A stretch of DNA of 64,000 nucleotides from sequence record OP688485; one strand, given 5' to 3'. This stretch comes from Escherichia phage EP_H11. Position 1 is the stretch's first letter. Each line of letters begins with the position of its first letter. Made by a program: the position numbers and the translations under genes. Positions 27,638 through 29,591 of this stretch are shown here, in pieces. The notes under the pieces were generated by a model that was not told where the DNA came from, ran no database searches, and saw nothing but the letters and a program-made list of their open reading frames with translations.

Positions 27638-27680
27638 AAAATGGGACTCATTCGTGATAGGGATGAGTCCCATTTATTTA
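27638..27680. terminator. bidirectional intrinsic terminator between convergent early and late blocks
   Basis: ~14-bp stem AAATGGGACTCATT / GATGAGTCCCATTT flanked by A-run on one side and T-run on the other. Confidence 0.8.
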
Positions 27681-28010
27681 GCGCTTAAAGATGCCCATAA
27701 TAGCATCGTTAAACAATCCTAACAGTACTGTAATAATCGCTAACGCACCGCTCCAGAATTTAATCTTGTCGTTTACTTCCTTAATCTCCTTCCTTAGATT
27801 ATCCTGCTCATCTTCAAGGCCAGAAATCTTCTTAGACATGAAATTCTGTGCAACGACTAGCTCGCGGATATCCGCTAATATCTCCGTCTGCTTACGAGAA
27901 GACTCCATAAGTTGATCAAGGATTACTCCCTGAAACTTCTGGTTAGATTCAAGTCTCGCTAGCCTATCGAGTTGGCGCCCACCGAACTCAGACTCTTCCC
28001 TCTCGCGCAT
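27678..28010 (-). CDS. coiled-coil protein with C-terminal transmembrane anchor (lysis-associated)
   Basis: 110 aa; GAGGAA RBS; C-terminal WSGALAIITVLLGLF hydrophobic helix. Confidence 0.45.
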   Translation of the reverse strand: MREREESEFGGRQLDRLARLESNQKFQGVILDQLMESSRKQTEILADIRELVVAQNFMSKKISGLEDEQDNLRKEIKEVNDKIKFWSGALAIITVLLGLFNDAIMGIFKR

Positions 28011-28020
28011 ACAAGATTCC

Positions 28021-28230
28021 TCACTTCTGATTGCTCTCTAGGCAATCTATATAAGACACCAATTTAGCTAATTCAGCGTTAGGAATCCTGATCCCGTCTT
28101 TTTCCGCTATCGCTGCTATCGGTGGACGGTCGCATCTTATCTTCGGGGTCTGCATCTGCATTGGTAGGCTGTTGCAGCTTACCAAACTTAGACTCCCAAG
28201 CACCAGTAGGGTCGTTTTTAATTTCTTCAT
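28021..28230 (-). CDS. putative o-spanin (outer-membrane lipoprotein)
   Basis: MKKLKTTLLVLGSLSLVSC lipoprotein signal with lipobox; GGGAG RBS; begins inside the upstream gene in another frame. Confidence 0.55.
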   Translation of the reverse strand: MKKLKTTLLVLGSLSLVSCNSLPMQMQTPKIRCDRPPIAAIAEKDGIRIPNAELAKLVSYIDCLESNQK

Positions 28231-28309
28231 CTTTCTTCTCCCGAAAGCGCACCTGCATGGCAGACACGAGTAGGGTAATAAGCCGAAGAATAAGAGTAAG
28301 AGCTTTCAT
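28079..28309 (-). CDS. putative i-spanin (N-terminal TM, charged periplasmic region)
   Basis: AGGAG RBS 8 nt before ATG; MKALTLILRLITLLVSAM TM; ATGA overlap with upstream holin-like gene. Confidence 0.5.
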   Translation of the reverse strand: MKALTLILRLITLLVSAMQVRFREKKDEEIKNDPTGAWESKFGKLQQPTNADADPEDKMRPSTDSSDSGKRRDQDS

Positions 28310-28728
28310 ATCTTACTCCTTTTACCCTCTGGATTTTTGATCAGAGACTTGCCGTAATCAAGGGCATCAATAGCCTGGGTGGCCTTACTCACGAGATGTG
28401 GATCATCCTGAGTTTGGACTACATCGGAAAGAACCTGCTTAGCCTTATCCATGGTCTCTACTTTCTGCTCGTCCTGGGTAGCAGCTTTCTTATCTACTTT
28501 GGCAGCAGATTTAGGCAAGTTCAGAGCGATGAAGTTTAAAATGGACGCTGCATAACCGAGGTATTTCTTAACCACCCCAATGTATTCGTCGTCTTTAGTG
28601 TTAGGAGTTATTTTAGCGATCTTCTCGAGAGCTTGCACCAATACTGATGCGAGGCCGATTATAGCTAGTGCAAGAGCGATGTAATCATCGATCTTGGATC
28701 CATCAAGTACATCCAGGATATTGTCCAT
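28306..28728 (-). CDS. putative holin
   Basis: 140 aa with two hydrophobic helices and charged C-terminus, directly downstream of endolysin. Confidence 0.5.
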   Translation of the reverse strand: MDNILDVLDGSKIDDYIALALAIIGLASVLVQALEKIAKITPNTKDDEYIGVVKKYLGYAASILNFIALNLPKSAAKVDKKAATQDEQKVETMDKAKQVLSDVVQTQDDPHLVSKATQAIDALDYGKSLIKNPEGKRSKI

Positions 28729-28742
28729 TATTAATCACCATA

Positions 28743-29390
28743 TTAAAGAGTTAAAGTCTGATTTGCTCTGCGTAGTACAGGCAGTCTGTCAGGTACGGTC
28801 GCCACAGACCCATTTATCTTCTGGGTTACTTTGGTGAATGCGTCCTGATCTGCTAATTGATTTAATTTATTTTTATCCCAGAACCACCCTGCAGTAAGCA
28901 TGATCGTTTCGAAATCAGTCTCTACTAACTCTGGATCTTCTACCAAACGGTCATCCCCAAAGATACTCAAGGAGGCCTCTCGATAGTTAGCTCTACCAGT
29001 TAGATGCATTGCCCCACGGCCAATATACTTATACCCGTCTCCGCTAGCCGGAGTTCCGTTACCCATGCGATTAGCATACACCTGATTGGCTAACTTCTCA
29101 GGGTCGCGTATGTAAGCATTAGCATTAAGCTTACCAGGTTCACCTCGAAGAGTAAATCTACTAGGCCACACAGCTACCAGACGAGACGCAGAGGTATAAT
29201 ACAGGGACTCCACAAACTTAGTGTAATCCCTAGTTTCAAAGGCAGTCTGCGCCATAAAATAGCGCAGACGACGATTGGTATTGATACCATAACGCTCGAT
29301 AGTAGTATTAATGGCGGGTAGCAGCTTTTCCAGCACTTCTGTTGAAGTTGTTGGGAGGAACTTCTTCAGCTGGTCAAGTGTAACGCTCAT
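28743..29390 (-). CDS. endolysin, glycoside hydrolase family 19-like
   Basis: YIGRGAMHLTGRANY and surrounding segment resemble GH19 chitinase/lysozyme catalytic core. Confidence 0.7.
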   Translation of the reverse strand: MSVTLDQLKKFLPTTSTEVLEKLLPAINTTIERYGINTNRRLRYFMAQTAFETRDYTKFVESLYYTSASRLVAVWPSRFTLRGEPGKLNANAYIRDPEKLANQVYANRMGNGTPASGDGYKYIGRGAMHLTGRANYREASLSIFGDDRLVEDPELVETDFETIMLTAGWFWDKNKLNQLADQDAFTKVTQKINGSVATVPDRLPVLRRANQTLTL

Positions 29391-29414
29391 ATTATACCCC
29401 TACCTAGTTAAGGC

Positions 29415-29591
29415 TCACTTCCGAGCCTGTTTTCTCTGGAGAGCCGCCTGTAGCGACTCTATTTCGACCCATCCCTGTCCATTAAATCTCCATCTTTTAC
29501 CCTGTAAAGACTGGAAGATTGAGTTTACCGGAGCTATGGCTGGTATCTCTGTTTCGAATCCGGTCTTGAACCATGGTTCGTTGCTAGACAT
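29415..29591 (-). CDS. hypothetical small protein (58 aa)
   Basis: ATG preceded by AAGGAG; lies between tail fibre gene and endolysin; below ORF-track cut-off. Confidence 0.4.
   Translation of the reverse strand: MSSNEPWFKTGFETEIPAIAPVNSIFQSLQGKRWRFNGQGWVEIESLQAALQRKQARK

Follow-up and report, generated by a model that had tools for sequence, protein, structure and literature searches.

Of all the steps of phage lysis, disruption of the outer membrane is the one least settled. Phage P2 carries its lysis genes in the order Y-K-lysA-lysB-lysC, encoding holin, endolysin, LysA, LysB, and LysC. Two proteins of Bacillus phages, gp24.1 of SPP1 and XhlA of PBSX, carry a transmembrane (TM) helix at the C-terminus and work together with a holin that has two TM helices (PMC6316719), and the PBSX effect requires all three xhl/xly genes (PMC5589764). 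Among surveyed phages of Gram-negative hosts, ∼13% lack a recognizable spanin, and 31 have a lipoprotein gene but no linked i-spanin candidate (PMC6139136).

We analyzed a group of genes in Escherichia phage EP_H11, within a 64,000-nt stretch of sequence record OP688485 (the window). The region is the lysis cassette of this phage and stands at the end of its late operon; among the four small envelope proteins (C, D, E, and F), only the outer-membrane lipoprotein E matches the lambda-like textbook parts. Because the cassette comes from an E. coli phage, the lambda complementation toolkit is directly applicable to it.

Layout, conservation, and endolysin

The region has six ORFs, A to F, all on the minus strand and at the coordinates that an earlier note on this DNA had given for them. 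That note had placed a lysis cassette at the end of the late operon, which is supported; the operon ends at a strong terminator after F. This intrinsic terminator (27637-27675, minus strand; ΔG −21.6 kcal/mol by RNA folding) is a hairpin followed by a U-run (z = −5.75, 0/200 shuffles). It closes the late/lysis operon and also serves the convergent plus-strand operon that ends at 27624. A consensus terminator scan did not pick it up because its loop is longer than 8 nt; it was recovered by folding. The contig L003 has a hairpin of another sequence and a T-run at the same position downstream of F.

D, E, and F lie in three different frames. The stop codon of C and the start codon of D overlap (ATGA), and D is predicted to be translationally coupled to C. 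E starts 79 nt inside D, at D codon 27 and in the +1 frame, and extends 58 nt beyond the D stop. Shine-Dalgarno–like sequences precede D (AAAGGAG), E (GGGAGAAG), and F (GAGGA), in agreement with the good ribosome binding sites (RBSs) previously noticed for D and E.

Conservation was assessed over four sequence lineages in five independent assemblies. All cassette ORFs are open in IME392 (93% nucleotide identity), in L003 and L073 (both contigs more diverged), and in L074, and the D/E overlap displays a checkerboard of constraint in pN/pS. The kept-open ORFs, the low pN/pS of C (0.17-0.29) and F (0.15-0.21), and the D/E checkerboard thus show that C, D, E, and F are real genes under selection and not chance ORFs. 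All of D, E, and F are missing from the annotation of the IME392 record.

Gene A (29415-29591, minus strand, 58 aa) lies between the endolysin gene and a gene for a 1014-aa DUF4815 structural protein. Its product has no TM segment, and profile searches of Pfam, PHROG, and NCBIfam did not place it in any family at a significant level. L001, L003, and other contigs also carry the conserved ORF, which the EP_H11 record lists as hypothetical protein WBU87729.1.

Gene B (28743-29390, minus strand, 215 aa) had been called a GH19 endolysin, and the profile searches uphold this assignment: B scored 32.9 bits against Pfam PF00182 (Glyco_hydro_19; gathering cut-off 25.5; E = 7.5e-8) and 1.8e-59 against the endolysin family phrog_181. 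It aligned end to end with PDB 9eoi (5.3e-32) and also matched the SPN1S endolysin 4ok7 (1.5e-15), sharing GH19 homology with both endolysins and showing no notable difference from them. A tblastn search found it in 1107 phage records; among the matches listed, the annotation is mostly endolysin or lytic enzyme. A TM scan of the whole window gave no hydrophobic segment in B, and it has no signal or SAR sequence. B is, by prediction, a soluble, cytoplasmic GH19-type endolysin and an ordinary member of its family; having no export signal, it needs a membrane-permeabilizing partner. Candidate catalytic Glu residues, recognized from sequence only, occur in AFETRD and FVESLYY.

Envelope proteins C, D, E, and F

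Topologies of these four proteins were deduced from hydrophobicity and charge. C (28306-28728, minus strand, 140 aa) had been described as a two-TM holin, a view that the analysis does not sustain, as C has only one strong TM helix (residues 16-35, dGapp 0.0 on the Hessa scale); a second hydrophobic stretch at residues 57-72 reaches +8.9 kcal/mol on that scale and thus does not span the membrane. The AlphaFold2 (AF2) model has four helices and low confidence (pLDDT 58), and only helix boundaries were taken from it. C resembles a small holin in its size of 140 aa, its TM domain, its charged C-terminus (KNPEGKRSKI), and its start 14 nt past the endolysin stop. It carries the family motif KIAKxTPxxKDD and a clade-specific helical C-terminal extension of 65 aa. 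It matched phrog_9685 (1e-15), which like phrog_402 is a family of unknown function; it had no Pfam or NCBIfam match and belongs to no curated or experimentally defined holin family.

A word-indexed search recovered only C's own clade, and the family was opened by tblastn against phages. Relatives occur in 117 phage records and 57 IMG/VR loci, and at most of the loci inspected they lie among or beside lysis genes. Most C-like proteins have just 50-80 aa. Their N-termini are acidic and free of basic residues, and basic residues follow the TM helix, a distribution that favors N-out/C-in. In the Aeromonas and Vibrio cassettes examined, a different protein with several TM helices is encoded upstream of the endolysin and bears a holin annotation in phiARM81mr. 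This weakens the holin assignment of C: C-like proteins could be antiholins or something else because this other protein is already present. We infer that C is the best holin candidate of the EP_H11 cassette.

E (28021-28230, minus strand, 69 aa) had been proposed as an o-spanin–type lipoprotein whose gene overlaps the upstream one, and this proposal is well supported. Its lipobox is MKKLKTTLLVLGSLSLVS|C-N, that is, LVSC with Asn at +2; across all four lineages the lipobox is LVSC or LASC with Asn or Ser at +2, and the lack of Asp at +2 indicates outer-membrane sorting. The mature part has 51 aa and two further conserved Cys residues, and its C-terminal helix, AELAKLVSYIDCLESNQK, is invariant (pN/pS 0.08-0.16 for residues 51-69). 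E aligned with E-like lipoproteins at an hhalign probability of 96.4% (E = 1.2e-9), and these relatives match phrog_8971 (8e-8) and phrog_456 (4e-5), both labeled "Rz-like spanin." Moreover, the o-spanin of L056, whose partner is a 135-aa i-spanin, matched the E HMM at 3e-6. By homology, these results identify E as an outer-membrane lipoprotein related to lipoproteins annotated as o-spanins. E carries no annotation in the public records examined, and its exact sequence is not in a collection of 15 billion proteins.

D (28079-28309, minus strand, 76 aa) has a Leu-rich helix at its N-terminus, a tail that is acidic and variable, and the conserved motif EKKDEEIKNDPTGAWESKFGKLQQP. D and E had been read as a classic overlapped Rz/Rz1 pair. 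The gene layout fits this reading, with D overlapping the o-spanin–type gene E, but D itself does not fit the part of the i-spanin. The D family (54 clusters, motif DPxGxFxxxFG) is short throughout, at 57-102 aa, and every member is called hypothetical or has no name. The N-terminal helix is marginally hydrophobic in the window clade (dGapp +2.0 to +4.5 kcal/mol, KD 1.6-1.9) and amphipathic in D-like relatives, with Asp, Glu, Lys, and Arg inside it (dGapp +7.6 to +14), so a TM helix is not a feature of the family; the more hydrophobic helix of the window clade might nevertheless insert into the membrane. It is followed by ∼54 disordered, acidic, Pro- and Ser-rich residues with no heptad pattern and no coiled coil, where an i-spanin has a coiled-coil periplasmic domain and a conserved membrane-distal end. 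pN/pS was 0.00-0.12 for residues 27-49 and, in the three informative comparisons, 0.66-1.25 from residue 50 to the end; the C-terminal tail evolves neutrally. D is linked to the D-like proteins by an hhalign probability of 57% (E = 1e-4) and by conserved synteny, and in PHROG the D-like proteins fall in families of unknown function. On these predicted features, D is not a canonical i-spanin.

C, D, and E recur together in other phages. Among 31 distinct C-like variants, a D-like gene accompanies 22, an E-like lipoprotein gene likewise 22, and both together 21. In 21 of the 22 cases, the D-like start codon is no farther than −3 to +3 nt from the stop of the C-like gene (+187 in the remaining one); the two genes are in most cases translationally coupled, and the E-like gene usually overlaps the D-like one. 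C-D-E is thus a conserved three-gene module that recurs in over 20 Aeromonas, Vibrio, and related phage lineages, including prophages. The arrangement varies: in L008, the lipoprotein gene lies ∼950 nt away and the D-like gene still adjoins the C-like gene; in L056 and L057, the C-like gene stands beside an i-/o-spanin pair of canonical size, so the C-like protein is not itself the i-spanin there; and the L058 group has C-like genes without any lipoprotein. When 22 kb of the window was compared by tblastx with all fetched C-like loci, only the C gene matched, so these phages are otherwise unrelated to EP_H11.

F (27678-28010, minus strand, 110 aa) was modeled by AF2 as one continuous helix (residues 2-109, pLDDT 87.8). 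Its heptad helix, with Gln at alternate "a" positions (Q27, 41, 55, and 69), continues straight into a C-terminal TM segment (residues 89-108, dGapp +2.1) followed by KR. The previous description of F as a tail-anchored coiled coil, unlike the i-spanin topology, is therefore upheld by its TM segment, heptads, and single helix. F has no signal peptide, and its N-terminal 85 residues include 34 charged ones (16 K/R, 18 D/E). Five K/R lie in the 15 residues before the TM segment vs. two after it, and this positive-inside balance favors N-in.

F is an orphan restricted to this phage clade. A HMMER search of 1.84e9 representatives for remote homologues returned its own cluster and one repetitive 623-aa coiled-coil protein (2.4e-6), a word-indexed search returned four clusters, each at least 81% identical, and the matches in Pfam, PHROG, and NCBIfam were generic coiled-coil noise. 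L002, a candidate relative from an IMG/VR scan, was spurious, having in common only ESNQKFQGV within an unrelated 374-aa protein. A small tail-anchored coiled-coil protein adjoins the C-like gene at just three other loci (L056, L057, and L066); against these, F gave an hhalign probability of 4.7%, which indicates no homology. The literature on tail-anchored phage lysis proteins and on two-component holins of Gram-negative hosts yielded nothing directly relevant. F may, as suggested earlier, be an antiholin or lysis regulator.

Readings of the cassette

The cassette as a whole is best explained if C (with D and F) works at the inner membrane, E works at the outer one, and a canonical i-spanin is missing, a reading to which we give about an even chance of being right. 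C would be the holin or its core, being small, with one TM helix, an acidic N-terminus (N-out), and a charged C-terminus, and adjoining the endolysin. C and F would be the only robust membrane proteins of the operon, and D would be a small partner of C, cytoplasmic or membrane-peripheral, rather than an i-spanin. The C-terminal span of F would anchor it in the inner membrane, leaving an ∼85-residue homo-oligomeric coiled coil in the cytoplasm; by functional analogy with XhlA/XhlB (PBSX) and gp24.1/gp26 (SPP1), F may join C as a co-holin or as a regulator of lysis timing. E would perform or assist outer-membrane disruption once the murein has been degraded. No protein of the cassette combines all the features of an i-spanin, so the cassette encodes no canonical inner-membrane partner for E. 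It counts against this reading that no mechanism is known by which an o-spanin–like lipoprotein works without an inner-membrane partner.

The alternative that survives best, although we think it unlikely, is the classic arrangement: C a two-TM holin, D and E an ordinary overlapped i-/o-spanin pair that spans the periplasm and fuses the membranes, and F an accessory regulator. The gene order and overlap fit Rz/Rz1-type architecture, the complementary D/E constraint is the pattern of embedded spanins (PMC6139136), and the window-clade D helix is comparable in hydrophobicity with the TM segment of F. However, the second helix of C does not span the membrane, the residues after the D helix are disordered and acidic and have no heptads, and the distal end of D is neutral while that of E is nearly invariant. 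The D-like proteins, never longer than 102 aa, have charged, amphipathic helices and belong to PHROG families of unknown function.

It is somewhat less likely again that EP_H11, and more broadly the phages with the C-D-E module, has an undescribed kind of spanin, in which either E works with the C-terminally anchored F or the short, non-TM D together with the single-pass C replaces the canonical i-spanin. The version with E and F would fit the "type I i-spanin," a theoretical possibility named by Kongari et al. (2018). If true, such a spanin would explain some of the phages listed without an i-spanin or without spanins.

A specific form of this idea, which we regard as improbable, makes F the inner-membrane spanin subunit in N-out/C-in orientation, with an ∼12.5-nm coiled coil in the periplasm whose N-terminal end would bind the C-terminal helix of E; D may be a third component. 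F is the sole long coiled coil of the cassette and directly follows E, and the peptide LESNQK, which the earlier note had pointed out in both proteins, lies at the membrane-distal end of each (in E in 4/4 lineages, in F in 3/4). The sharing is real (chance ∼4.5e-4 by composition-preserving shuffles of the pair); its explanation by an old duplication is contradicted by differing codons, by the lack of flanking similarity, and by the degenerate LEAGQK of the L003 F, which also counts against a role in pairing F with E. LESNQK could conceivably be a functional motif. In L051 and L053-L055, a membrane-anchored coiled-coil protein follows the pair of short protein and lipoprotein, at the position of F, but its TM segment is at the opposite end. 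The lack of a signal peptide, the many charges in the N-terminal 85 residues, and the charge balance of F all speak against export of its N-terminus. Leaderless export of so charged an N-terminal tail is rare.

A shade more doubtful still is a reading in which C is the i-spanin, an N-terminal TM domain with an ∼105-residue helical domain, in a separated architecture with E, while the holin function falls to F, by itself or jointly with D. C has the size and the modeled layout of an i-spanin (140 aa, a TM helix and then three helices), in 21-22 of 31 variants a C-like gene comes immediately before the D-like and E-like genes, and the Aeromonas/Vibrio cassettes examined encode the other multi-TM protein, called a holin in phiARM81mr. 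Against it, most C-like proteins have only 50-80 aa, their acidic N-termini and the basic residues after the TM helix point to N-out/C-in, L056 and L057 encode a canonical i-/o-spanin pair in addition to their C-like protein, and the C-like genes of the L058 group have no lipoprotein beside them.

Finally, the suggestion of a single unimolecular spanin gene, which a frameshift error in sequencing or assembly would have split into E and F or which programmed frameshifting would restore, is refuted in all likelihood. In its favor are the N-terminal lipobox and C-terminal TM segment that the two would jointly have, as in T1 gp11. Against it, the E stop, the spacer, and the F RBS and ATG recur in EP_H11, IME392, L003/L004, L073, and L074; the spacer measures 9 nt in L003 and 10 nt in the three other lineages, and the frame of F relative to E differs accordingly; E and F of L003 are in frame yet separated by two stop codons; the junction has no slippery site; E and F are separate ORFs, F with its own RBS, in five assemblies; and F is all-helical, where u-spanins are predicted to be beta-rich (PMC6139136).

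Comparison with known lysis systems

The cassette offers three protein families with putative roles in lysis: the TPxxKDD membrane protein C, the short DPxGxFxxxFG protein D, and the tail-anchored coiled coil F. The families of C and D are common to more than 20 Aeromonas and Vibrio phage and prophage lineages. Knowing which of the three is the partner of E would broaden what counts as a spanin or else bring to light a further level of holin control in Gram-negative hosts.

Compared with T1 gp11, E and F together would have the same pair of anchors, an N-terminal lipid anchor in the outer membrane and a C-terminal one in the inner membrane, but the two are separately initiated in every assembly, and F, a helical and not a beta-rich protein, lacks an export signal. 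The P2 cassette is matched by the Aeromonas and Vibrio relatives examined, which run holin, endolysin, C-like, D-like, and overlapped E-like lipoprotein, parallel to the P2 order given above. However, no sequence relationship to P2 was found, the D-like proteins are far shorter than LysB and have no TM domain, and EP_H11 has no holin gene upstream of its endolysin.

F shares with XhlA and gp24.1 a length of ∼80-110 aa, a coiled coil, a Trp, a C-terminal TM segment, and a short tail, and its gene also lies in a lysis cassette beside a small membrane protein and an endolysin. This likeness does not extend to sequence: against a six-member gp24.1/XhlA alignment, F reached an hhalign probability of 14.9%, with the aligned region out of register with the TM segment, and it scored 12.2 bits against Pfam XhlA (PF10779; cut-off 34.7) and 0.0016 against phrog_1193. 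Unlike XhlA/XhlB and gp24.1/gp26 of the Bacillus phages, the EP_H11 proteins act in a Gram-negative host, C has one strong TM helix instead of two, and the gene order is different.

The overlapped two-component spanins of the lambda Rz/Rz1 type differ from the EP_H11 genes on the side of D, which has 76 aa, no convincing TM domain at the family level, no coiled coil, and a neutral distal end. On the side of E, the likeness is close: its gene starts inside the upstream gene in another frame, the overlap shows complementary constraint, the pair stands at the end of the lysis cassette, and E itself has a lipobox, outer-membrane sorting, a mature part of ∼50 residues, and conserved periplasmic Cys.

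The cassette and its surroundings

Six close-packed minus-strand ORFs, A to F in order of transcription, occupy positions 27678-29591 immediately 3′ of a 1014-aa DUF4815 structural gene. The earlier note had labeled them a lysis cassette, a sound observation that we judge to be right. All six are where it placed them and stay open in vB_EcoM_IME392 (GenBank MH719082; the closest annotated record, at 93% nucleotide identity), the diverged Logan contig L003, a fourth lineage (L073), and L074. Intergenic gaps are 9-24 nt, the C stop overlaps the D start (ATGA), the E start falls within D in the +1 frame, and F lies 10 nt past E in the third frame. 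A Shine-Dalgarno-like sequence precedes D, E, and F, bearing out the ribosome-binding sites proposed for D and E. Exact protein look-ups assigned accessions to A (29415-29591, 58 aa; WBU87729), C (28306-28728, 140 aa; WBU87727), D (28079-28309, 76 aa; WBU87726), and F (27678-28010, 110 aa; WBU87725). The lipoprotein gene E (28021-28230, 69 aa) was absent from every protein collection looked up and had therefore never been called as a gene, leaving it unannotated in EP_H11. In IME392, D, E, and F (L001 7593-8224) are all unannotated, and a 930-bp feature-less gap lies 3′ of the C gene.

The operon ends at 27637-27675 in a hairpin and U-run (ΔG −21.6 kcal/mol, z = −5.75 by RNA folding) that faces a convergent plus-strand operon. 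L003 has a hairpin and T-run of the same position and form (~6340-6380) with an entirely different stem sequence, which points to selection on structure.

B (28743-29390, 215 aa) is a GH19 endolysin, as first read: it matches Pfam Glyco_hydro_19 over threshold, phrog_181 “endolysin” (1.8e-59), and the solved phage enzymes 9eoi (5.3e-32) and SPN1S 4ok7 (1.5e-15), and tblastn matched it to 1107 phage records. A transmembrane (TM) scan of the window found no hydrophobic segment in B, which should thus need a holin.

In the convergent operon, a 120-aa plus-strand ORF (26469-26831, start MTSADCVAMAVYYEARGESERGQ) has an L003/L004 counterpart matching Pfam Hydrolase_2 (SleB-type cell-wall hydrolase); the phage would then have another peptidoglycan hydrolase, encoded away from the lysis cassette. 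More small envelope proteins, of unknown function, are encoded in the presumably early region on the opposite strand: a 69-aa protein with an N-terminal TM, a coiled-coil-like tail, and a Cys-rich end (14492-14701, +), a 75-aa hydrophobic protein (16842-17069, +), and a 137-aa lipoprotein with lipobox VAAC (2086-2499, +). Just past the lysis cassette, the IME392 annotation has dCTP deaminase and dUTPase genes (L001 9854-11212). IME392 is reportedly cited in a paper (PMC12686479) whose subject is a phage with a T-hypermodified genome, and phages of this group might carry modified DNA.

The D/E overlap

Nei-Gojobori pN/pS counts between lineages make the overlap a checkerboard, one frame constrained and the other drifting. 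D 27-49 (EKKDEEIKNDPTGAWESKFGKLQQP) is conserved (0.00-0.12), and the E signal peptide, encoded by this stretch in its other frame, is not (at least 0.63); the acidic tail of D, from residue 50 to the end, scores 0.66-1.25 in three informative comparisons, and E 23-50 opposite it 0.12-0.43. E 51-69 (AELAKLVSYIDCLESNQK) scores 0.00-0.16. Both frames are, on these counts, evidently translated and selected. Complementary constraint of this kind has been reported for embedded spanins (PMC6139136).

The reading of E as an o-spanin lipoprotein held up. It has an LVSC lipobox with Asn at +2 and a 51-residue mature chain in which two more Cys are conserved; its homologs, E-like lipoproteins (hhalign probability 96.4%, E = 1.2e-9), match PHROG “Rz-like spanin” families. 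By sequence, E is a good o-spanin-type lipoprotein. D is homologous to the small proteins preceding these lipoproteins (hhalign probability 57%, E = 1e-4), with a common DPxGxFxxxFG motif and conserved synteny. A profile search placed 54 clusters in its family, each of 57-102 aa and hypothetical or unnamed, none with a Pfam domain. A 102-aa ENA contig product, P0039, joins a D-like N-terminal part in frame to a mature E-like part; a frameshift error in its metagenomic contig is the likeliest explanation, and the case illustrates how easily the two frames are joined.

A classic Rz/Rz1 pair, as originally proposed, survives in layout, with E starting inside D in another frame, but not in the protein features of D, which was to be an i-spanin with an N-terminal TM. 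The N-terminal helices of its relatives resemble MSAFLKLLELFADELSRLLRLQRARE or MKVLELLLDLLLRVLNYVD and are amphipathic and charged, with predicted insertion free energies of +7.6 to +14 kcal/mol against −2.5 for lambda Rz; the EP_H11-clade helix, at +2 to +4.5, is more hydrophobic yet marginal. No coiled coil was found in D, and its end expected to contact the o-spanin evolves neutrally. Of the 31 C-like variants distinguished, a D-like gene accompanies 22 (starting no more than 3 nt from the C-like stop in 21, at +187 in one), an E-like lipoprotein 22, and both 21; in one locus (L008) the lipoprotein gene is ~950 nt away and the D-like gene still adjoins the C-like one. D thus appears to partner C, with the start of E lying within its gene, and we consider a classic D/E pair unlikely.

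The membrane proteins F and C

F was correctly described as a coiled coil with a C-terminal TM, not of i-spanin topology. Its AF2 model is one unbroken helix (residues 2-109, pLDDT 87.8), in which LIVMF fill 59% of a/d positions (32% overall), Gln recurs at alternate a positions (27, 41, 55, 69), and the heptad register leads straight into TM 89-108, ending KR. No signal peptide was found in F, 34 of residues 1-85 are charged, and K/R number five before the TM and two after, which favors a tail-anchored, cytoplasmic coiled coil. This layout is probably shared by the E. coli ElaB/YqjD-type tail-anchored proteins, which have a dibasic C terminus and a cytoplasmic N domain. PBSX XhlA and SPP1 gp24.1 have the same architecture, a C-terminal TM helix included, and work together with a two-TM holin (PMC6316719; PMC5589764). 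F fails sequence membership in their family by Pfam and hhalign, and hhalign finds no similarity (probability 4.7%) to the 53-76-aa tail-anchored coiled-coil proteins adjoining C-like genes elsewhere (L056 2837-2998, L057 1286-1516, L066 2448-2666). By sequence, F is an orphan; it has a pN/pS of 0.15-0.21 and is 81% identical in L003.

The charge arguments run against an N-out F that pairs with E as a spanin subunit, a doubtful reading that draws on the peptide LESNQK, found at what would be both membrane-distal ends. The shared peptide, noticed post hoc, is real and unusual (~4.5e-4 of shuffles of the E/F pair): E has it without variation, and F has it in three of four lineages. The old duplication suggested for it is not supported, given different codons, dissimilar flanks, and LEAGQK in the F of L003. 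As a possible functional motif it is a lead for this inverted arrangement.

C, taken earlier for a two-TM holin-like protein, has a single strong TM (residues 16-35, about 0 kcal/mol); its second hydrophobic stretch is amphipathic (+8.9 kcal/mol). Its low-confidence AF2 model has four helices. C matched nothing in Pfam or NCBIfam, and its PHROG matches are of unknown function, so that it falls in no known holin family. Whole-gene pN/pS is 0.17-0.29. By tblastn and an IMG/VR scan, its first ~80 residues have relatives in 117 phage records and 57 viral contigs. These share a KIAKxTPxxKDD motif and an acidic N terminus; most are 50-80 aa long and come from phages of Aeromonas, Vibrio, and Shewanella. 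Many Aeromonas/Vibrio prophage-like elements encode, in order, a multi-TM protein (annotated holin in phiARM81mr), an endolysin of varied class, a C-like protein, a D-like protein, and an overlapped E-like lipoprotein. L056 and L057 have a C-like gene beside a canonical-size i-/o-spanin pair, and the L058 group has one without D or E. These contexts make C-like proteins lysis-cassette membrane proteins, neither a defined holin family nor i-spanins. Since the late operon within the window encodes no robust membrane protein besides C and F, C is the best holin candidate; swapping the roles, with F the holin and C the i-spanin, is improbable on the contexts just described.

Four IMG/VR loci (L051 and L053-L055, the last three from 25-128-kb contigs) show a different four-gene set ~+200 to +1300 nt past the C-like gene. 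It begins with a 68-aa protein that has a true N-terminal TM, its gene overlapped by that of a 70-aa lipoprotein; a ~90-aa coiled-coil protein assigned to phrog_32256 (function unknown) comes next, followed by a multi-TM protein of 157 aa. The ~90-aa protein matches F in position, but its TM anchor is at the opposite, N-terminal end.

The E stop, spacer, ribosome-binding site, and F ATG recur in all assemblies compared; the spacer measures 10 nt in EP_H11, IME392, and L073; in L003 it is 9 nt long, and E and F share a frame with two stops between. This disposes of the proposed u-spanin split by a frame change: no fusion mechanism is conserved, and F is helical, not beta-rich. A sequencing or frameshift artifact, for which the earlier note wanted the junction checked, is scarcely credible when independent assemblies share its features.

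Proposed scheme and comparison with known cassettes

The most likely scheme, to which we give roughly an even chance, is that C, together with the coupled D and the clade-specific F, would permeabilize the inner membrane or time its permeabilization; B would then degrade murein, and E would act at the outer membrane, its partner being something other than a canonical i-spanin. The cassette is readily testable in E. coli. It departs from the textbook arrangement in three respects: D and E resemble Rz/Rz1 in gene layout only, D failing the defining i-spanin protein features; C belongs to an uncharacterized membrane protein family; and F is an orphan.
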